33,393 nucleotides of DNA from a virus (lineage: Duplodnaviria > Heunggongvirae > Uroviricota > Caudoviricetes), in IMG/VR virus record IMGVR_UViG_3300028833_000069. The stretch is one strand, 5' to 3'. The position numbers were made by a program, and so were the translations under genes. Below are positions 2,437 to 33,393 of this stretch, piece by piece (the stretch's first letter is position 1; every line of letters starts with the position of its first letter). A model generated the notes under the pieces. The model did no database searches, was not told the DNA's origin, and was given only the letters and a program-made list of their open reading frames with translations.

Positions 2437-5400
2437 TTATTCTTTATTTAATGGAGTGTAAAACTTACCACCTTGTTTATAAACTATAAATGCAGGAGTT
2501 TGTTCGATACCCATTAAAATAGGAGTTCTACTCATAGAAGTAGGAGCAAACTCAGCACCAATTGGAGTACCAGCATTAAATGCATTAACACCAGTAGTAT
2601 TTAAGTGTTGTTGGTATCTTTGCATGAATGCATTGTGCTCTTTAGGGCTCATAGCATCCCAGAAATCATTTGGATTTTCTTTACCAAAATACCAACCTTT
2701 CTTTGTAGCAGGAGTACTTGTAGGAGCTGGTGTACTAACTGGAGCTTTTACTTGTTTAGGAGCAAAGAACAAAGCTCTATTTCTTCCTGTAGCAATATCT
2801 ACATCAGAAGCAAGTGGCCCAAGTCTTCTTTCTAGTCTTTCATTACCAGGAACTCCATAATCAAATGCAACTCTTTCAGGTTTGAAATTCTGTTCTGCAA
2901 GAGGATTATTAAACTGAGTTACTCTACCTCTCCAGAATTTCCATTGCATTTTCTTATCTGGAACTAATTCAAGGTCTTGATTTCCACCAATGTTTCTTAA
3001 CAGCTTGTTAGCTTCTTGTAAATCAGGAGCTGTTTGTAACTTCTTGAGTTCTTCAGCTGTTAAAGGAACTTCAACATCAGTTAACTTTCCTGTAGCAGTG
3101 TTAGCTTGTTTAGCTTTAATCTTAAAGAACTTCTTATCACTCTGTGCAAGTAATGCATTGTTTTGTGCTTTCTTAGTCTTATAACCACTTGCTGCTTGTC
3201 TGTTAAGACCTGCAATCATACTAAGACCTTGAATAAGAGTTCTCCAATCATTAGCAGTCATATCCTTACCTTCACCATTTATAAGTTTTGTAAAGGCTTG
3301 TTTGTAGTTTTCAGAATTACCAATGAATTCAAATCCTGCCATAATTGGAGTAGCAAATTTGGATAAAGTCTTAACAACCTTACCAACTTTACCTACACCT
3401 CCAAACAAACCTACAACATCAAAAGCTAAGTTAACTCCCAAGTTACCAATGTCTCTCCATTGGAAACCATCTTCAGTAATATCAGCAACTAAGTTATTAA
3501 CAGAAGAACCTACTCCAAGAACAGCTGAAGCAGCAGTACCATAACCAGGAATCCAAGCAGCTACAATAGAACTTAAATCTGCAATAGCAGAACCAAGTCT
3601 TTGCCAATCTTGTGCAGACCAACCATCTACACCTGGCATTCTGTTAGCAGCAGCTTCTTCTGTAATAGAGTTTGCTTCACCAGCACCAAAATAGCCAATC
3701 CTTGTCTTATCCCACTTACCATTACTTTGTTCACTAAGCGGAATTTTAGTACCTTTCTTAGCTGTGATTACACCACCTTCTTTTTTATTGTATATAGAAT
3801 TGTGAGCTGTTCTAATAATGTTTCTCAATTCAAGAATTTGTCCTTCAGTAAACTTAATATCTCCACTTCTATACTTTTGATTTAACCAAGCACCAAGTGC
3901 ATGAGCTTGTTGTTCACCATTTCTAGCATTATACAAGTCAGAACCAGCAATTCTTTTAAGAGAATCCATGAATCTGTTGAAATCTCCTGCATTATTAACA
4001 GTAAACATTCTATCCCAAGCTCTCACTAACTCAGGATTAGCTTCTCCAGTAAATAAAGTTTCATACTTTACTTCATTTGGAAAATCTTCTGTACCAAGTT
4101 CATTATCTCCCTGAATTACATAATTAAAAGGAGTATTTCCTAAATTAAAGGCAACACTATTACCGTTTGTGTCTTTGTAATATAATGGAGAGTTATTTCC
4201 TAATTCATAAGTTCCATAGAAGTTTTGACTTCTTTTTCCTCCTAACATCCAGATAGGTTTAGTACTACCAAACTGTCTACTAAAATCATAGAATCTCATG
4301 TCAGAAGGAGCTATATTTGACCTATAGAACCCTGCTGCTTGTGCATCACTTATATTATCTAAGAACAGGTTAACATCATAATAAGGAACCAAATCAGATT
4401 GTTGTTGCTGAATTGCTTGAGTTCTAGTAGTTAAGAAGTTCTTTAAATTGTTATCCAAACCATACTTAACTTGGTCTTCTTGTGCATTTGTACCATAATG
4501 TAACTTACCACTTGGGTCTACATAATAGTAATTGTTGAATTGAGGGTCTCTATAATCATAGTTAATGTCACCCTTGCCAATTTGAGTTTGGTCTGTTGTC
4601 CACCAAGCACCATCTCTAAATACCCAAGAGTTACCAAGATTACCAGAACCCCAAAGATTAGGAGTTGTAATCTTACCTGGTTTTACATTTCCTGGGCTTG
4701 CAGGACCACTTGGAGTAGTCGGGTCTGCTTCAGGAAACAATTGTTTAATCCATTCATTATCACCTCCAAGGTCTCTCCATAACTTCTTAGCATCTTTTCT
4801 GTTAGTCAAAGCTGCCATTCTCTCTGCAAGAGTAGAAGCATCAAAACCATGAGGAGTAATAAAGTTCCACTTAGATTTATTCTCTTCAGAATTATCAGAA
4901 TTGTATCTGTCAAGAGTTGCTTGAATTCTCCTATTCATAGCCTGAATTCTGGTAGCATCACTATTGTAATTGGTAGACATGTCACCAGTTTCATTCATAA
5001 CAGAACTCCAATCCCAATCAATTACAGAAGAAGAGGTTCCTTTTGGAGTAGCTTTCTTTCCTTTATGTTGATTATAACCAGCATATACATATCTGACAAT
5101 CTGGCCTGTCTCACTTTGAGAAGGATTAGTGTCACTATGATGTAATCTGCCAAAGAAATTCTTATCAGGAATTCTAGCACTTGCATTAGTTAGATGGAAG
5201 AAATCTCTATATTGACTATAATCATCTCCATCTAATGTGCCAAGTAAGTATTTCTTAGCATCATTTGTTACATGAGCTGCATCTGCTGGTCTAAGTTTAT
5301 AGGCAGAAGAATAGTTATTAACACCTGCTAAGATGTTCTCCCAATCTTGTTTTGTTTCAGCATCCAAACCAGCATATGCCTTATTGTAAGCCTGGTCCAA

Positions 5401-5457
5401 AGCAGATGGTTCTTGCTGTGCCTATCCTCCACCTTGTAATTTAGCAATTTGTGCCAT
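2437..5457 (-). CDS. Large putative cargo/ejection protein with a Gly-rich hydrophobic segment (1006 aa with TAG=Gln)
   Basis: ATG at 5457 (MAQIAKLQGGG), a single TAG at 5422, then the 987-aa ORF ending in TAA. Hydrophobic stretch LGSAIADLSSIVAAWIPGYGTAASAVLGVG...LAFDVVGLFGGVGKVGK. Confidence 0.75.
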
Positions 5458-5806
5458 ATTGTAATGTAAATTGTGATTTCTATTTAGTTATATTGCTTAC
5501 TATATTGTAAACAGTTTTTCTTGTTAGATGTAGTACTTTGGAGGCTTCCTTCTTGTTATCAAAAAGTCTTGTTGCTCCATTACTATATGTACATTTAATA
5601 GTATATTGAGGAATCTCCCAGTACTTATCATCATCATTTACATATTTCCATTTATATCCCTTGTAAGACTATCTTCTGCCAATGCACACATCTCTAATAG
5701 AAGATGCATTATAACCTGACTTTGAGGCTTCATAAGCAGATTGCCAAACTCTAACAATAGTCTCACCTTGTAACTGATATACTGGTTTTTTTGGAATACC
5801 TCGCAT
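5441..5806 (-). CDS. NUMOD1-like DNA-binding domain protein with no nuclease domain (121 aa with TAG=Gln)
   Basis: Manual translation: MRGIPKKPVYQLQGETIVRVWQSAYEASKSGYNASSIRDVCIGRR[Q]SYKGYKWKY...RLFDNKKEASKVLHLTRKTVYNIV... with TAGs at 5669 and 5480 and TAA at 5441. It matches the NUMOD1 pattern KPVxQ...S..EA...I..xC.G.....GY.W.Y. Confidence 0.75.
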
Positions 5807-5811
5807 AATGT

Positions 5812-5852
5812 AAAAAATAAAAAAGGAGAGATTAGCATCTCTAATCCCTCCT
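5812..5852 (-). terminator. Intrinsic terminator after the 83-aa gene
   Basis: Minus strand AGGAGGGATTAG-AGATG-CTAATCTCTCCT followed by TTTTTATTTTTT; 12-bp stem with one G-U pair. Confidence 0.75.
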
Positions 5853-5858
5853 CAAAAC

Positions 5859-6110
5859 TTATTTCAGTCTGCCAGTAATCTTGCCACCTTGTTTTTGGTA
5901 AACAGGACCTTGAGGAGCACCCTGAACAATTTGCATAATTACTTGTGCAAGTGCCATAGCACCTTCAGGACCAAGACTCTGTACAATCTCCATAGCCATT
6001 TGCTGCAATTGTTGCATTGCTTGCTCTTGTTCTGCTGGAGCTGGAGCTGCTGGAGCAGCAGGTGCTGCACCACCCTCCTGAAATTTAAATTTTCTTGCTT
6101 CTTTTGCCAT
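5859..6110 (-). CDS. Small Ala/Pro/Gln-rich protein (83 aa), probable virion or assembly protein
   Basis: Clean ATG-to-TAA ORF between a promoter and a terminator, with GG motifs at both ends (KFQEGG, YQKQGGKI). Confidence 0.8.
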   Translation of the reverse strand: MAKEARKFKFQEGGAAPAAPAAPAPAEQEQAMQQLQQMAMEIVQSLGPEGAMALAQVIMQIVQGAPQGPVYQKQGGKITGRLK

Positions 6111-8331: not shown

Positions 8332-11300
8332 TTAAGCAAAACTATAATCAAACAAAGTAGTGACACCTTGTATGATCGCAAGGTTTTCACCTGAATATCT
8401 TACCTTTACTTTAAGGTATTTATCTCTAAGTCTAGCTTCTATTGGAGCTGTAAAATTAACATCTCCAGCAGTAATTACCCAAGTATCTTCTGTGGGCTGT
8501 CTGAAGATTATTTCAGATTCAGAATTATCTGCAAGTACTGTCATTTCAACAATAGAGCAATTCTCACTAACTGAGAAGTAAATCTTGTTCAGACCTTTCT
8601 CAATAAATTGAGGTTCTTCTATATTGTCAAAGTAAACATAACAGTCATTATTAGAAAGTGTTTCAAAAGAGTACAGAATACCTTTTTTAAACTTACCATA
8701 TAACTTGAATGTAGTACTTGTAATACCTGTTAACTTCTTCAATTGCATAATATCTTCATCAACAGTAACTTCAGCTTGAGAAGATTCTTTTTCTCTTGCT
8801 TTAAATCTTTGTTGAGTATCATCCTTAAGTAAAGCATAGGAGAATCTAACAGGTCTTAATTCTACTCTCCACAAATCTTCTAGATACTGCATATTACCAG
8901 CAGCTCTACCATATTTCTTAATATCAACACCAAGTTGTTCTGTATGAACTCTGTTCTCATGTAACTGGGTGTCTTCTATCAGACAAGTTTCAACACAGTT
9001 GTTAAGATATTCAAAATCATTAGAACCTGTTTCTAAAGCTCTTTCTTTAATATCATTCTCAACCTGTGCTTTTTCAAATTCTGTAAATTCAACAAAGTAA
9101 GGAATCTTTGGGAATTTATAGGAAGCATCTTTACCAAATAATGTTGGGAAATCATCTTGCTTAATTAAATCTCCATAAGTACTTTCTAAAACTTGTTTAT
9201 ACAAATACTTTAGATTTTCTTCATAATTTCCTGGTAAAGTCTCAGCTTTACTATTTATCCACTCAATTACTTCTTTATATTCCCACCATTCATAAGACTC
9301 ACCAACTACTTCAAATTCAAACTTCTTAGGCTCTGCCTTATTTGAAAGAATCATTAAGTTATTGAATATCTTTTGAATCTATGGAGCTTCATTTACAATA
9401 AACTCAAAATTAAACTCATGCTGCTTACCATACCAGTTAGCAGGTTTAATCTTACCTTGATTATCATATAAACCTGCTTGACCATGTTTCCACAATTCCA
9501 TGAAGTCACTTGCAGTTCTTATTTCATAAGGTGCATGGTCTCCATCTGAAATTGGGTCAGACTCATCAGTAAGTTGAGTATAGTAATCAATTGTTTTTAA
9601 CTTATTGTTAATCTTATTGTAAATTTCAAAGTCTTCCTTAATTTCTGTAAAGTGAGGTTCACAGAGTTCTAATTGCTCTGCTTGCTTACTTGCTATAGTA
9701 ATGTAACTTCCTTTCTTCAAAGTACTATATTTGAAATATATACTGAAGAATTTCCAAGCATCATCATTACTTGAGCCTTTTGCAATGTTATTTTGTACTT
9801 CAATGGTATCACCTTCAAATACAAAATCTTTCTTTTCATACTCGCCATTCAGAACTAAATCTACATCATTTGTAGTTTTGATATAGAAGCTTAAACAAGC
9901 AATACTATCATCTGTAAGCCCCATATCTTTTAATGGCTCTGTAGAAGGTCTACTGGTACCAAGAACAATTACATACTTATAGTCAGTATCACTATAAGTA
10001 CTGTTCTCATCATCTACTTCATAGGTATATACATTGGTAAATCCAGTGTATGCTCCATCAATATTTGATTTCAGTTCTTGATAAGTACCTTCACCTTTTA
10101 TTGCATTAGGATAAACCTATAAGATTGCATTATAAGGTGTAAAGCCATCATTAAGTTTTTGATTCAAACTATCTTGAATCTTTAAGAATTTATCTCTATC
10201 AAAAGAGAAGAAAATATTATCAATATTCTGTGATAATACAGGATACCAATCATAGAAAGTAGTGAACTTTTGAGTTACAAGATTATAACACAAAGACCAC
10301 TTAATATTTCTATCATTGTTATAAAAAGTAAAGATAACATCCCTCTTGAAAGCATTATAGTGTGTAACAACATTCTTCTTTCCTAAATCTTCTTGCATGT
10401 CAAACTCTGACAAGTCTAAGTGGTCATTTAAGAATTTCTGTACTTTAAAGTCAGAAATACAAGTAAGTTCTCCATTATAAAGCCAAATCTTCTTAGCAAC
10501 TGTATCTACACCAAAAATACCAGATTCTGTCTTAATAATAGAGTCTTTCCACATAGAACCATATATGTCAGAAACAACAACAGGAGTTTCAGGTAATACA
10601 GAATTAGAGCCAATGTAAATTGGTCCACCTTCTGTAGCAGAAGTCATTGCTCTTTCATTTACTGTTAAGAAGAGGATACCATGCTCACATACACAAATAA
10701 TATTACCATTGTAATCTACAATCTTGGTAATAGAACCATAAATCTTTGGATAATCTCTATAAGCACTTTCATAGATTACTCTATAACCATTCTTAATAGA
10801 ATTATTTACAGATATTTCTGACCACCAAATTCTTGTATTATATTCTTCTTTAAAGAATGGTACATCAGGTAATTGTAAGTATTTCTTACTTGGTACTGAA
10901 ATAGCACAAGCACCATTTATAACATCAGAATCTTGTTGTGTACTATGTGCATCTAAGTTATTAGAGAATGGGAAGAAATCTCTTTTCTTACCAAAAATAA
11001 CTTCCTCTTCAGGATGATTATAATCAATGTCTCTTAATGACAAGTTGATAGAACAACAAACAGGGAATGTAATCCATGTACCAATTGGTACTGCATTAAC
11101 ATCAGCTCTGTTAATGTTAGACAAACCTCTTGTAACCCATTCTTCTTCCTTAACAGTACTGATGATAGAACCAAAGATTTTCTTTAATGTTCCACCACTA
11201 CTACTAGATTCCTAACTTTGTGGGTCAAGAGCCTTGTAGTTACTGTTTTCTTGCATATCTCCATTTATATTAACAGAGAATGCTTGAACTACTTCATTAG

Positions 11301-26980: not shown

Positions 26981-28291
26981 TTATATAGAAGGTGTAGGTA
27001 CTTCAAACACAACATCAATGTCTTGTTGAACATTTCTTAAAGCTTCCTCACTTACTGACCAAGCTCCATTATCAGAATAATCATCATAATCAAGAGCAGG
27101 CCATTCTACAGCACTTCCTTTAAATACATTTTTCTTGCAAATAAGATTAGCAGTAGTAATACTATTTTTGTAGAAAGATACTGTAACAATATCTCCTGTA
27201 ATAGCACCTACTGCATTATCAACATAAGTTTTAACAGCTCCTGAAGTTGGTGCTACAGAACTATTATCAATAGTTGTTACAAGACTTCTTTCAACAGCAG
27301 AAACTTGTCCATCTGCCTGAGATACTTGTTCAATGTATTTACCAGTACCTCCTTGCTGTGCTAAATCTAATGCATTAACTTTATTGTCAATATATGTTTT
27401 AACAGCTGTAGATGTAGGCGCAGTATTACCACCAGTAGCTAAATCAGAAGCAAATTCAACTGCAACAGCTGCAACTTGGCCATCAGCTTGACTTACTTTT
27501 TGAATAAACTTACCTGCTTGACCAACTTCTACTAAATCTAGTGCATTTATTTTATTATCTGTATAAGTATTTGCATCTTGTAAAGCCTGTGCAGCAGCAC
27601 CTCTTAAATCCCAAGCACCTTCATCACCAAATTCTGTCCAAGTTCCATTATAAAGAATGTACTCTTTTGTACCAAGCATTACAATATCACCATCCTAATA
27701 GTTAGCAGGATCTGGTAATTCTTGTACAATTCCTCTAAAATGAGTAGCACCTGCAAGAGGAGCAACTGCTTGTGCAACATGGTCATAAACTGCTTTTGCA
27801 GTAGGAGCAATTGTTCCATCAGCAGTTACAGATTGGGCAAACTATTTTTTTGTTGCAGTAACAACACCATCTGTCTCAGAAACAGTTTCTATAAAAGAAC
27901 CTGATTCTCCTACACTTTGCATGTCTAAAGCTTCTATCTTACTTTTGGTATCTGCTTTAGCAGCAGCTTCAGCATCATTTGCCTTATTTTGTGCAAATTC
28001 TTTTGTTGCTATAATTTCTAAGTCTACACCAGCTTGAGTAGCAATAGGGGTCTTCCATTGTCTAACCCCACCCTAATCTAAACCAGCATAAACATACATT
28101 TGGTTATCAGCTATGACATATACAGCCATACCTTCTTCCAATCTGTTTTCAGTAATAGTAGCAAGGTCAGCATAAGTCTAAACACTTCTGTAACCTCCTT
28201 TACCATACTTTGCATCATGAGTAGCATAAATGTCTTCAGTAGTAAAAGGAACTACTGGAGCAGCTACATTTGTACCTTGTATATTTGCCAT
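26981..28291 (-). CDS. Tail fibre-like protein with three ~56-aa repeats (436 aa with TAG=Gln)
   Basis: ATG at 28291 (MANIQGTNVAAPVVPFTTEDIYATH...YGKGG); four TAGs join it to ORF 26981..27679; TAA stop. Confidence 0.7.
27215..27940 (-). repeat. Three imperfect ~56-aa protein repeats, K(I/V)xALD...G.(F/Y)I..VS..DG.V.A...APT..AV
   Basis: Units start at 27940, 27553 and 27382. Confidence 0.8.
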
Positions 28292-29818: not shown

Positions 29819-31120
29819 TTAGTTGTAATAATAATATTTTTGTTTATTTAATATTGTCGTTGCAAAAGGAAGATATTCATTGTCCCTAACAAGTCTATCT
29901 TTCAATACAGAAGAAGCTGTAATAAATACATAGTCTTCAGATTCTATATCATTATCTAAATAAGCAAATCTTACTACTATTTTTTCTTCTCCTTTAATAG
30001 GCACTACCTCAAACTGTTTAATAGCAATTAACTTACCAATAACATCTGTTATACTAACTCTTTTATCAGTTGGTACACCTAACCAGTTATCATAGCCCTT
30101 CTTTTCAGCTAAAGATTGATACTACATTTTCTTAAATAAATTTATGTTTCTATCACCTTTTATAGATAGCCAAAAACCAATAGACTTGGTTAATTGTAGC
30201 CACCCTAGGTAACTAGCCATCTGTTGTTTAAATGTATGATCGTCAACACCTCTTTTATTAAGTCTAGCTGCTTTTCTTCTTATTTTTATATAAAGGTGTC
30301 TTTGTAATGTCATTTTATTTTCTGTAAATTTACAGCCAACCATTTTAACACCACACTTTACTGGAGCAATTCTAACATTATTTTTAATAGTTAATTTATA
30401 CTCATCAGCAAATTGTTGAAGTTCTTTAAGAAGTTTCTAAGCTTCTTCTTTAGTTGGAATAAACATTATTATATCATCCATATATCTAAAGTAAAACTTA
30501 ATTCCAAGAACTTCTTTAAAATAGTGGTCACATATAGATAAAAATAAATTAGCAAGATACTAGCTACTACCAACACCAATTGCTAAACCTTTTTTGTTTC
30601 TATCTATTAACTTTTCAAAATATCTTATTATTCTTTTATCTTTAAATACTTTTCTGACAATTTCTTTCATCTTTTCATGGTCAATAGACTCATAAAAATG
30701 TCTGAAATCTGTCTTTAAGTAATACCAATTTTGATGTTTACTTACTACTACAGAAAGTGACTTAGCTAATCTGTGTAAACCTCTATATTGTAAACTACCA
30801 TAAGAACAATAAGGTATTCTATCTAATAATTCCCATTTTACTATTCTTAGTACAGCATGGTCAATTATTTTATCTGGATAAAGCTTTGGGGCATGTATAT
30901 CTCTTTCTTTAGGTTCATAAACTTTAAATGAAAACAAAGGACTTAAAGTATATGTTTCATTTTTTAAGTTTGTATATATTTCTTCAATTATTTCATCATG
31001 CTTTTCCCAAGCAGCTTTAACAGCTTTCTTGTTTTTACAAACTCTCAATGCTTCTTTAAAAGCATTTTCCAAGTTCATTTTGTCATAAACTTGTTCCCAA
31101 GTAACTTTGGACTTCTTCAT
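29819..31120 (-). CDS. DGR reverse transcriptase with a fused ~100-aa C-terminal domain (433 aa with TAG=Gln)
   Basis: RT motifs FKVYEPKERDI, PDKIIDHA, YYLKTDFRHFYESIDH, GLAIGVGSS[Q]YLANLFL (DGR-type SQ), YFRYMDD (YMDD at 30473-30484) and SYLGW. TAGs at 30560, 30437 and 30122; the first TAA is at 29819. Confidence 0.9.
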
Positions 31121-31149
31121 ATCCAGTCCTGTTAACAAGTCATCTTCAG

Positions 31150-31347
31150 CATTAGCTTACCAACACCTTGTCGTTATACTGTGTTTTGTTGTTAAACAAC
31201 AAGGTCTAGCCAGGTTTGGTGCTATGTACACCTTAATTATAAGAACTGTTTGGAGGCAAACCCATTCACATTGTTAGCATTGTTAACATTGTTAGCATTG
31301 TTAGCACGCCCCAAGCCATAGAGGGAAAGCCTGACCTGGCTAGACCT
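31150..31347 (-). ncRNA. DGR template RNA (TR plus structured flanks/spacer)
   Basis: Intergenic region upstream of the RT. Holds the AAY-rich TR, a perfect 14-bp inverted repeat (31202-31215 / 31334-31347) and an 11-bp stem (31165-31175 / 31195-31205). Boundaries are approximate. Confidence 0.7.
31251..31330 (-). repeat. DGR template repeat (TR)
   Basis: Minus strand ...CGT GCT AAC AAT GCT AAC AAT GTT AAC AAT GCT AAC AAT GTG AAT GGG TTT GCC TCC A. Positions 31251-31290 align without gaps to 33354-33393 with 10 mismatches, all at TR adenines. The 5' boundary is uncertain because the VR is cut by the window edge. Confidence 0.92.
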
Positions 31348-31355
31348 ATATATAT

Positions 31356-31622
31356 TTATTTTCTAATTATCTTAAAATAGGTATTTGTTATTGAACCAGC
31401 ACCACCTTCACTACCAGGAGTACCTGTAGTTGGATAGGGAGCTTCTTTCAATGAGATACCTCTAACATTTATATTGGAAACAGCTTCTGGCCCATTTAAG
31501 AATTGGAAGTAACTCAGAGATAAACCCCTCAACACTTCCTCAATAGGACTGTGAGCTTCTTCACCTTCAAGAAACTAAAAGTAACTTAAAGATATTCCTC
31601 TCAAGAGTACATCACTATCCAT
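31356..31622 (-). CDS. Small hypothetical protein with an internal repeat (88 aa with TAG=Gln)
   Basis: MDSDVLLRGISLSYF[TAG]FLEGEEAHSPIEEVLRGLSLSYFQFLNGPEAVSNINVRGISLKEAPYPTTGTPGSEGGAGSITNTYFKIIRK-TAA. The ATG is 1 nt after the target gene stop. Not in the ORF track. Confidence 0.75.
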
Positions 31623-31623
31623 A

Positions 31624-33393
31624 TTATACACTCTTTGTTACAAATACTGCAAATTGCATATAAGGTTGATCTAATACAGATTTAGTTCCTGCCATAATTG
31701 AGCCATTAGCTTGATAAGAATATGGATTACCAGAACCAAGCAACTGATCATTGATTGTACTTCTGTTAATTACTCCATTACTCTTTAAAGCAAAATATTC
31801 TCCTCTAGTAGCAGCTGGAACCCAAGGAGCAGTTGGAACCAATCTTTCGCTATCTGCTGCTGCAATTTCTTCATCTGTTCTATCATCAAACATCATTGCA
31901 ATTTGATATGCATTGTCTTCTGGACAAATAAATGTTGCAGTTGTTTCAGCTACAAAAGATTCTCCTGGTACAATAGTTCTGCCATTAAAACTGATGCTTT
32001 TACCATTTTCAGGATTATAATAAGTTATACCTTGAATAAGAGTATTACCAGAAGTAACTGTTCTATATACACTTGATCTACATCTGCAATATACAACATT
32101 CTGTACATTTGGATCATTGATAGCATATGCATAAATAGTTCCATCTGCTCCAGCACTCATGTTATACTTATTATATTCTCCTGTTACTGCATCTGCTGTT
32201 ACTACAAGCATATCATCTGCTTTATATGCTACATAATCAGCATAAGTAGGATGCCAATACATAACTCTATCATCTACAGATGCTTGATCATCTGCTCTTA
32301 ACAAATACTTACCAGCTGGAAGAGAATCTCCAGGACCATATTTAGCAACTACTTGATTGCCATTACCATCATCTTTAGTGCCAATGTAGTCATCAGTGTT
32401 CATTGTTATACCTTTGTCAGTAATATGGTCAGATTGTAAAGCATAGACTCCATTATACTGAAGTTCAGCAGGATTCATCTTCATTATCTTGGATAAGATT
32501 GCACCAGTTGTTGCAACAGAACCTTCATTGATTTTAATGCTTCCATTTTCAATCTTTAAGCATCCTGTAAGTGTTCTATTATCAAAACACCAAGTATGTC
32601 CATCTGAAGCTGTTCTAATGTTCTCTGTTTCTCCATATACTTGGATATGTGCAGCAGGAGGTAATGCCCCATAATAAATATTGTTTTCAGGGAATATACA
32701 AGCTGCTGTTGGTTTTAATGTAAAATCTAAACCATCTGGATCATTAAAGATGTCATATGCACTTTGATCAGGGAATATACAAGCATTACTACCAGTACCA
32801 AATTGCATTGAATTAGATTCTGTAATTAAACTTAATCTAACCATTGCTGGTATAACATGAGAAATGTTTGGAGTAACACCTTCATCAACTACTACTGTAA
32901 TTGTTATGGTATCATTCTCATCATCATATGCATATCCTTCTGTATCTCCTGTTTCCCAGAGTACTTGCCAGTTTTTAGTTGTATTATTAGCACCACCTGC
33001 TCTGTAAACATAATATCTACAGTCATTAGCAAAACAACAGTTTATAAAATAATCTCTACTATTTTCAGAACCTGTTGCTACAAAGAAATCCCACTTCGAG
33101 TATACACATCTGTTACCATAGTGTCTACCAGTTACAGCGCCAGTACCTCTTCTACCTACATTTTGTCCAGTAACACCTTGTCTATCTATTCTTGTATTGT
33201 AATATGTACAATAAGTTGAAGCAGATCCAGAATAATTACTCAGAATAACAGGACAACCTGTGTTTCTAATAATATCTGAATAGATTATTCTAGTGGGGGA
33301 AGATCCCCCACATCCCCCTCTCCATAGTTTACTGTGGTGTACCAGGACTGGACTGGAGGCAAACCCAGACACACTGCCAGCACCGCCAACATA
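31624..33393 (-). CDS. DGR target protein (putative tail spike/adhesin), 5' end outside the window
   Basis: The frame is open for 590 codons from the window edge to TAA at 31624. The VR is in frame at the window edge (YVGGAGSVSGFAS). Confidence 0.85.
   Translation of the reverse strand, partial: YVGGAGSVSGFASSPVLVHHSKLWRGGCGGSSPTRIIYSDIIRNTGCPVILSNYSGSASTYCTYYNTRIDRQGVTGQNVGRRGTGAVTGRHYGNRCVYSKWDFFVATGSENSRDYFINCCFANDCRYYVYRAGGANNTTKNWQVLWETGDTEGYAYDDENDTITITVVVDEGVTPNISHVIPAMVRLSLITESNSMQFGTGSNACIFPDQSAYDIFNDPDGLDFTLKPTAACIFPENNIYYGALPPAAHIQVYGETENIRTASDGHTWCFDNRTLTGCLKIENGSIKINEGSVATTGAILSKIMKMNPAELQYNGVYALQSDHITDKGITMNTDDYIGTKDDGNGNQVVAKYGPGDSLPAGKYLLRADDQASVDDRVMYWHPTYADYVAYKADDMLVVTADAVTGEYNKYNMSAGADGTIYAYAINDPNVQNVVYCRCRSSVYRTVTSGNTLIQGITYYNPENGKSISFNGRTIVPGESFVAETTATFICPEDNAYQIAMMFDDRTDEEIAAADSERLVPTAPWVPAATRGEYFALKSNGVINRSTINDQLLGSGNPYSYQANGSIMAGTKSVLDQPYMQFAVFVTKSV
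33293..33311. promoter_or_regulatory. GC-rich hairpin/cruciform downstream of the VR (candidate DGR target-recognition element)
   Basis: GTGGGGGA-AGA-TCCCCCAC, a perfect 8-bp stem 42 nt past the VR end in an otherwise AT-rich gene. Confidence 0.7.
33354..33393 (-). repeat. DGR variable repeat (VR), truncated by the window edge
   Basis: TAT GTT GGC GGT GCT GGC AGT GTG TCT GGG TTT GCC TCC A versus TR AAT GTT AAC AAT GCT AAC AAT GTG AAT GGG TTT GCC TCC A. Confidence 0.92.

Follow-up and report, generated by a model that had tools for sequence, protein, structure and literature searches.

Does the variable region (VR) of a diversity-generating retroelement (DGR) have to close a lectin fold at the C-terminus of its target protein? 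The question is raised by a stretch of viral DNA of 33,393 nucleotides (nt) from a member of the Caudoviricetes (IMG/VR record IMGVR_UViG_3300028833_000069; the whole stretch is referred to here as the window), at one end of which a DGR target gene, a template repeat (TR) and a reverse transcriptase (RT) gene lie side by side. In the survey of Roux et al. (2021, PMC8144416) a lectin fold is stated as systematic for annotated VR regions and the C-terminal position of the VR is tied to cis elements; the position has been explained by the keeping of cis-acting homing signals outside the coding sequence (PMC8144416; Wu et al. 2018, PMC5758913). The few internal or N-terminal VRs that have been recorded belong mostly to the Ig1 and Ig2 classes (PMC5758913). 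An earlier reading of the window, made from its letters and referred to below as the original prediction, placed the VR deep inside the target and proposed that it diversifies a beta-solenoid. It also counted Ig-like domains among the known sites of VRs, a view that is now out of date: on a later reading of the Ig1/Ig2 targets, the VR belongs to a domain that is not of the Ig type, and the Ig-like domains come after it (PMC8144416).

Our analysis leads us to the view, to which we assign a probability of roughly 0.8, that the window carries an active DGR of a ruminant-gut crAss-like phage that reads TAG as glutamine, and that the DGR diversifies a tail protein of 721 residues, with a right-handed parallel beta-helix predicted for the N-terminal ~380. 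The coordinates of the features are collected in Table 1.

The target gene and its variable region

The target frame comprises 589 codons in the window and closes with TAA, with no internal TAA, TAG or TGA. Of these codons, the first 13 (YVGGAGSVSGFAS) are part of the VR. The window edge runs through the VR and leaves 132 residues of the protein outside, on the upstream side. The original prediction that 576 codons and a TAA follow the VR with no stop between them is borne out by the open frame. A 721-amino-acid (aa) database protein (P0004), together with its 27-member cluster at ≥90% identity, represents the window's own gene, and these full-length copies place the VR at residues 123–143. 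The full VR is ~75 nt long (codons 121–145), with variable residues from 123 to 141. Its relative position in the target is ~0.18, with ~580 residues following without a stop, and not the C-terminal position of DGR proteins with a C-type lectin fold.

An assembly error hiding a stop just after the VR would have undone this picture. The full-length products P0169, P0174, P0179 and P0004 (721 aa) are continuous through the VR, none of the 15 full-length products (718–721 aa) read from the ≥90% cluster is interrupted after it, and ~55 diverged representatives (clusters at 50% identity) are likewise continuous. Because full-length cluster members read through the site with variation confined to the VR, a hidden stop or misassembly is ruled out.

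The comparison with the TR is equally clear. Over the 40 nt of the VR in the window and 30 nt beyond its edge, taken from a contig of the probable source sample, all 14 mismatches to the TR (14/14) fall at template adenines; with 20 adenines in the 75 nt of the TR, the chance of this is ~1e-8 by our own calculation. Complete VR/TR pairs are seen in two relatives. In the first, an IMG/VR contig (L001) encoding a 710-aa homologue, the VR lies at nt 9972–10048 (residues ~120–145) and the TR 2 kb downstream of it, again with 14/14 mismatches at adenines; in the second (L002) the figure is 11/11.

Translation of the TR gives LYGLGRANNANNVNNANNVNGFAS, which upholds the three-residue period, with fixed small residues and variable pairs, that had been noted from the sequence. 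All variable residues are encoded by AAC or AAT, with one TAT besides, and all fixed residues stand on adenine-free codons (CGT, GCT, GTT, GTG, GGG, TTT, GCC and TCC).

A predicted beta-helix around the variable region

No Pfam family was matched by the target protein, and the C-terminal half has no sequence relative in the PDB. Structure prediction and structure search both point to a beta-helix in the N-terminal half. A first full-length model, built from 20 sequences, was of moderate confidence (predicted local distance difference test, pLDDT, 65.5); its N-terminal 370 residues align to beta-helix enzymes and tailspikes (5olr, Z 12.3; 7dmk, Z 12.0; 8iq9, Z 10.1). Structural matches were judged here by VIA-align Z scores and not by Foldseek E-values. 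The AlphaFold2 model of residues 1–385, based on a 62-sequence alignment, has a pLDDT of 89 and a predicted template modelling (pTM) score of 0.90. In an exhaustive comparison of this model with 48,161 PDB chains, the top 50 matches were all right-handed beta-helices or related solenoids. The best was rhamnogalacturonan lyase (5olq; Z 11.8 over 240 aligned residues, root mean square deviation 4.7), followed by BT_1002 (5mqp, Z 11.4) and a PL6 alginate lyase (7dmk, Z 11.1), with pectin methylesterases, pectate lyases and phage tailspikes lower in the list. The alignments span residues ~14 to ~370 and so bracket the VR. Re-alignment of the Foldseek matches gave the same beta-helix result, and the neighbours in the ESM Atlas fall in DUF1565, Beta_helix, NosD and Chondroitinase_B clusters, besides unannotated ones (TM-scores 0.47–0.58, by model). 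A protein-atlas feature search gave leads, all below 0.9.

The two ends of the modelled domain carry recognizable motifs. At the N-terminus, YVDSxxGSDxxGDGTxxNPY matches by profile the helix start (N-cap) of a tail spike (8fqc), a tail fibre (9rkv) and a xylosidase (3vst), and weakly DUF1565. At the C-terminal end, DIFNDPDGLDFTLKP occupies residues 346–360 within the longer DIFNDPDGLDFTLKPTAACI motif; motifs of the DIFNDPDGLDFTLKP type are typical of beta-helix caps. DSSP assigns helix to residues 344–347 and strand to 348–350 and 355–358 in this part of the model, and D355 in the DIFNDPDGLDFTLKPTAACI motif is more than 90% conserved across the family. The solenoid-like motifs YCTYYNT and FINCCFAN, quoted in the original prediction along with DIFNDPDGLDFTLKPTAACI, are all present in the translation. 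A beta-solenoid scaffold in place of a C-terminal lectin fold is supported by the AlphaFold2 model and the PDB comparison; what is predicted is a fold-level resemblance and not membership of a curated family. The designation 'tail spike' is a presumptive one, drawn from the fold and the gene neighbourhood.

In the model, solenoid strands precede the VR (residues 53–60, 71–74, 80–83 and 99–102) and resume after it (148–151, 159–162 and 168–171). Within it, DSSP finds isolated bridges at 125, 128, 140 and 143 and one-turn helices at 131–133 and 137–139. Because strands stand on both sides, at 99–102 and again at 148–151, the VR is modelled as an irregular stretch between coils of one solenoid and does not close a domain of its own. 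A ribbon of tight turns would accord with the period of three residues, with the fixed small residues packed on the body of the solenoid and the variable pairs presumably facing outward.

Several points weigh against this reading. The fold is a prediction, with no solved structure behind it. A Z score of ~12 is a moderate one, and the Foldseek E-values are weak (8.3e-4 for the full model and 4.7e-3 for the domain model), every credible match nonetheless being a beta-helix. No Pfam beta-helix family exceeds its threshold (DUF1565, at 14.7 bits for P0004, falls short of its cut-off of 20.3), and at E ≤0.05 DUF1565 is found in 3/62 family members and Beta_helix in 1/62. Confidence is lower around the VR: the loop at 111–119, just before the VR, has a pLDDT below 50, and the block means within the VR are 70–75. 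Finally, a period of Ala or Val followed by two variable residues is unlike a regular beta-strand rung.

If the fold is accepted, the protein could be more than a binding scaffold. Polysaccharide lyases, pectin methylesterases and phage capsule depolymerases head the structural matches, and on either side of the VR in the sequence the family conserves D75, D83, N103 and D256, each at more than 90%. The target might therefore be an active depolymerase, a tailspike enzyme in which the VR forms the lip of the substrate groove and the DGR tunes substrate specificity instead of a lectin-like binding site. We regard this as unlikely: no lyase or hydrolase catalytic motif was identified and no enzyme family in Pfam was matched, and a shared beta-helix fold is no proof of catalysis.

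If, on the other hand, the beta-helix were an artefact, residues 1 to ~145 could form a compact, divergent VR domain of the C-type-lectin or DUF6273 (tentaclin) kind, followed by unrelated domains. Such an arrangement would match the Ig1/Ig2-class targets, in which a VR domain at the N-terminus precedes a long C-terminal extension; residues 111–143 are weakly modelled, and the end of the VR, G-F/V-A-S/G, loosely resembles the GFR ending of lectin-type VRs. New variants of the lectin fold are what Roux et al. (2021, PMC8144416) anticipated for VR domains not yet characterised, and their survey includes targets in which >250 aa come after an N-terminal VR. Against this, residues 11–100 comprise the cap and solenoid rungs with block pLDDT means of 91–97, the solenoid continues from residue 148, and the PDB alignments run unbroken across the VR from 14 to 370. 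The N-terminal motif, moreover, is a beta-helix cap by its profile match to 8fqc, 9rkv and 3vst. No DUF6273, FGE-sulfatase, DUF1566 or lectin family was found by Pfam at E 0.05 in the 62 members. No lectin-fold chain is among the 50 best of the 48,161 PDB chains, an absence from a list that excludes no fold in itself. We consider a lectin-like VR domain very improbable; the VR, with solenoid matches on both sides, does not appear to end a lectin or Ig domain.

Variation between strains and across the family

Strains were compared through assembled contigs and database proteins. Over its 589 residues the window product differs from three proteins of different assemblies (P0169, P0174 and P0179) at just 4–6 positions, every one of them within 133–141. 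Among 15 cluster members that are 94–98% identical overall, the columns with at least four residue types are 129, 130, 132, 133, 135, 136, 138, 139 and 141, plus 323 and 627. The nine VR columns coincide exactly with the nine AAY codons of the TR, and position 123 holds Y, C and S alone, as expected from TAT changing to TNT. Differences among near-identical genomes are confined to the VR, as is found for DGRs. Variation confined to the AAY columns, with this pattern at position 123, is the signature of ongoing mutagenic retrohoming, and we read the sequences as evidence that the process continues.

The same site is where assemblies fail. Contigs from other goat-gut samples end or diverge at 33367, within the VR. 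The IMG/VR contigs L023, L024, L025 and L027 end at or just before the VR, like the window, and the truncated proteins P0081, P0084–P0090, P0093 and P0095–P0097 end at profile positions ~131–150, at or near it. Hypervariability seems to break assemblies systematically at the target gene, which would explain the breaks seen at this gene in phages of the target family.

The arrangement is not peculiar to the window. A profile search of 1.84 billion representatives yielded 357 matches, ~55 of them full-length (600–720 aa). In an alignment of 62 homologues, 27–40% identical to P0004 except for P0002 (75%), the scaffold residues of the VR are conserved (G124 100%, G126 98%, A128 79%, V134 74%, V140 74% and G142 97%), and 12–16 residue types per position occur between them. 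We examined the DNA of 22 full-length loci (~28–75% identity) and found a TR/VR pair in 20/22, with the VR at residues ~110–158 of 590–720 aa; in L018 and L022 no TR was seen within the flanks fetched. In the 18 pairs for which mismatches were counted, TR adenines account for all but three bases, two at the 5′ boundary in L006 and one in L014. These 18 loci share the gene order target, small open reading frame (ORF), TR, RT. The remaining pairs, located and left out of the mismatch count, have the TR upstream of the target (~2524–2600 in L012 and ~2537–2610 in L013). Cassette order has changed within the family and the position of the VR has not.

The reverse transcriptase and the small ORF

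The RT motifs GVGSSQ (GxxxSQ) and YMDD can be read directly when TAG is taken as Gln. The frame contains three in-frame TAG codons, the first of which is the Q of GxxxSQ, and it is intact under the code used by the whole window; translation likely starts at the ATG at 31120. With three TAG codons, one of them at the Gln of the motif, RT production, and hence diversification, would depend on the recoding machinery. TAG is absent from the 589 target codons inside the window, against three in the RT. An extension of ~100 residues beyond the thumb (29819–30127, minus strand) follows the third TAG; the RTs of relatives are 431–472 aa long.

A 75–95-aa ORF was called between target and TR in six loci, the window and five relatives. 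The product is repeat-rich, with an internal duplication (VLLRGISLSYFQFL occurs twice in the window copy), and its C-terminus is basic and ends in IRK(K). It matched no Pfam or PHROG family and shows no evident likeness to Avd; it might serve the DGR as an accessory factor or have a part in tail assembly. Also to be set against our reading is that no Avd-like accessory gene was recognised, the 91-aa small ORF being the sole ORF between target and RT. Avd is absent from about a quarter of DGRs (PMC7290462).

That the likeness of TR and VR is a mere relic, with the DGR inactive in this phage and the strain differences old, could be argued from the three TAG readthroughs required by the RT, the want of a recognised Avd gene and the limitation of the comparison to assembled contigs. 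We consider this very improbable. Old variation should have brought other substitutions into the three proteins from different assemblies that equal the window product over 589 residues save in the VR. The TR/VR mismatches of the window are all at adenines and the repeats show no decay outside them, the RT can be read without a break in the window's code, and many contigs and database proteins break at the VR.

Cis elements inside the reading frame

As the VR lies so early, within the first fifth of the target gene, the reading frame itself must encode the cis elements of retrohoming. TR and VR have a common A-free 3′ end, GGGTTTGCCTCC, beyond which they diverge. A GC-rich hairpin lies 42 nt 3′ of the VR and is translated within WRGGCGGSSP. 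Set against 27 control windows of the gene, this site gives the strongest perfect hairpin in L002, a near-identical relative. A GGCGG-N5-CCGCC hairpin occurs at the same offset in about ten relatives, where it overlaps a conserved G-x-I-G-G motif, and hairpins of similar kind are found at an offset of 38–43 after the VR in several relatives. A second hairpin, (G/C)TCGGC-N4-GCCGA(C/G), follows in L004–L006, with a compensatory first pair in L006. The scan found nothing clear in L003, L008, L009 and L010, which weakens the case. The GC hairpin resembles that of BPP-1, on which target recognition depends, and is a candidate for the corresponding element of retrohoming here.

Proposed mechanism and implications

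We propose that the TR is transcribed and that the RT would copy it while misreading adenines, by analogy with BPP-1. The resulting cDNA would replace target codons ~121–145, with nine AAY codons and one TAT randomised; NNY codons can never yield a stop. Ala, Val and Gly at every third position would stay fixed, because their codons are adenine-free. If they face outward, the variable pairs may form a hypervariable patch that binds host surface structures, the target having a presumed receptor-binding role and location in the virion. The A-free 3′ homology GGGTTTGCCTCC and the GC hairpin would serve retrohoming from within the frame.

The family, which numbers at least 55 clusters (50% identity) among phages of the gut and rumen, departs from the generalisation of a C-terminal VR and, by prediction, from that of a lectin fold, and a second protein scaffold appears to tolerate DGR hypervariation. 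Should a structure confirm the fold, it would represent a second natural solution for displaying about 10^10–10^11 variants; it would show that DGR cis elements can coexist with coding constraints, the candidate hairpin lying within a conserved Gly-rich motif; and directed evolution based on DGRs would gain a new scaffold, with a cassette of 75 nt. A ribbon on a solenoid with a small hydrophobic residue at every third position would, if real, be a second portable scaffold for massive variation. If the VR were instead the lip of an enzymatic groove, a retroelement would be evolving enzyme specificity, beyond lectin-like binding.

Genomic context

All large ORFs of the window are on the minus strand. 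Their frames are interrupted by TAG alone, and reading TAG as Gln joins the pieces into long genes, the RT among them; PF23898, the family of the crassvirus major capsid protein, was matched by one product of the window (E 2.5e-13). From the fused genes and the capsid match we identify the window as a fragment of a crAss-like phage with a TAG=Gln code. Most phages of the related loci examined use the standard code. The window stretch is contained in sheep, goat and bovine gut metagenomes, and close relatives of the target gene are carried on contigs of up to 169 kb. A search of GenBank phage records returned a single spurious 38-nt match and nothing else.

The neighbourhood upstream of the target, past the window edge, can be seen in L002. 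A 152-aa ORF (5556–6014) runs 14 nt into the target gene and is preceded by a gene for a 943-aa protein (2672–5503). The weak tail-fibre PHROG matches of the latter support a tail module context of the target. Within the window, two genes downstream of the RT, a gene at 26981–27679 (minus strand) contains a Phage_fiber_2 repeat match (E 1e-5) and is probably another tail fibre gene; a 47-nt repeat occurs three times inside it (27193–27578), with a spacing of 168–171 nt.

Table 1. Coordinates of the target gene, the retroelement parts and associated features (window positions, unless a related locus is named).
Feature	Coordinates	Strand	Remarks
DGR target gene, 3′ 1770 nt (residues 133–721 of 721)	31624..33393	-	5′ end past window edge
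Variable region (VR), 3′ 40 nt	33354..33393	-	10/10 TR mismatches at template adenines
N-terminal right-handed parallel beta-helix domain (predicted), window part (residues 133–385)	32635..33393	-	AlphaFold2 model, PDB and ESM Atlas matches
GC-rich hairpin	33293..33311	-	8-bp stem, 3-nt loop, GTGGGGGA-TCT-TCCCCCAC; in coding sequence
DIFNDPDGLDFTLKPTAACI motif	32695..32754	-	residues 346–365, C-terminal end of predicted beta-helix domain
C-terminal half, residues 386–721	31627..32634	-	beta-rich in full-length model (moderate confidence)
Small ORF between target and TR	31356..31631	-	91 aa, one TAG read as Gln
Small-ORF counterparts	L002 8168–8434; L003 7079–7333; L004 7075–7362; L005 6940–7167; L006 6910–7143		
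Template repeat (TR)	31251..31325	-	75 nt; 9 AAY codons and one TAT
Perfect 14-bp inverted repeat around TR	31202–31215 and 31334–31347 (31202..31347)	.	repeat search
DGR reverse transcriptase	29819..31138	-	439 codons; RVT_1 E 7.5e-16; phrog_1423 reverse transcriptase E 7e-79

Comparison with known systems

In its predicted fold the target resembles beta-helix tailspikes, lyases and esterases (the tailspike proteins K2-2 TSP, 8iq9, and CBA120 TSP4, 5w6h; Kp7 gp52, 7xyc; 5olq; 7dmk; PemA, 1qjv), with Z scores of 9–12 over 205–240 aligned residues and the N-cap motif in common, at an identity of just 8–13%. None of these beta-helix tailspikes and lyases is known to be diversified by a retroelement, and the helix of the target starts at about residue 15, with no N-terminal virion-anchor domain before it. 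A full-text literature search found no paper describing a beta-helix DGR target, which, given its incomplete coverage, is absence of evidence only.

The family has probably been catalogued before. The 'Rare' target cluster PC_00083 in the supplement of Roux et al. (PMC8144416) has a relative VR position of 0.2 and bears the labels viral, rumen and Bacteria:FCB, the last of which would suggest hosts among the Bacteroidota. Metagenomes 3300003523, 3300007961 and 3300020011, the sources of L011, L012 and L013, also yielded the members of the cluster, so that the correspondence is one of metagenome identifiers. In that survey the cluster is listed among the rare targets, with no fold, position or mechanism discussed.

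Like the Ig1/Ig2 targets (PMC5758913; tentaclins and DUF6273, PMC10743442 and bioRxiv 10.1101/2024.10.15.618418), the protein appears to be a phage tail protein with an internal or N-terminal VR, in which the initiation of mutagenic homing (IMH) site overlaps coding sequence. In the Ig1/Ig2 targets, however, the VR closes a small lectin-like DUF6273 domain that is followed by Ig-like domains, whereas here it is predicted to lie between solenoid coils, and DUF6273, the mark of the tentaclins, gave no match in any of the 62 members at E 0.05.

The published DGR targets of crAss-like phages are the LMMB tail-collar fibre (PMC7290462), the receptor-binding protein of the epsilon phage crAssE-Sib (PMC11054128) and tail fibre proteins of zeta phages (PMC12386605). 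The window has in common with them the order target-TR-RT without a recognised Avd and the GxxxSQ motif, and with some zeta phages the amber-recoded RT. All of the published targets, by contrast, are described as bearing the VR on a C-terminal lectin domain, and for none is a beta-helix or an N-proximal VR described.

The retroelement itself shares several features with the DGRs of C-type-lectin proteins (BPP-1 Mtd, Treponema TvpA, Thermus TaqVP and archaeal AvpA): a target diversified from AAY codons in the TR, small scaffold residues that stay fixed among the variable ones, and a VR with a constant, A-free 3′ end. A GC hairpin downstream of the VR, here a candidate element, is also found in BPP-1 (Guo et al. 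2011, as cited in PMC8144416). In those proteins the VR makes up the last ~45 residues of a C-terminal lectin fold; in the target described here it occupies residues 123–143 of 721 in a predicted beta-helix, is followed by ~580 further residues and has its cis elements within the coding sequence.

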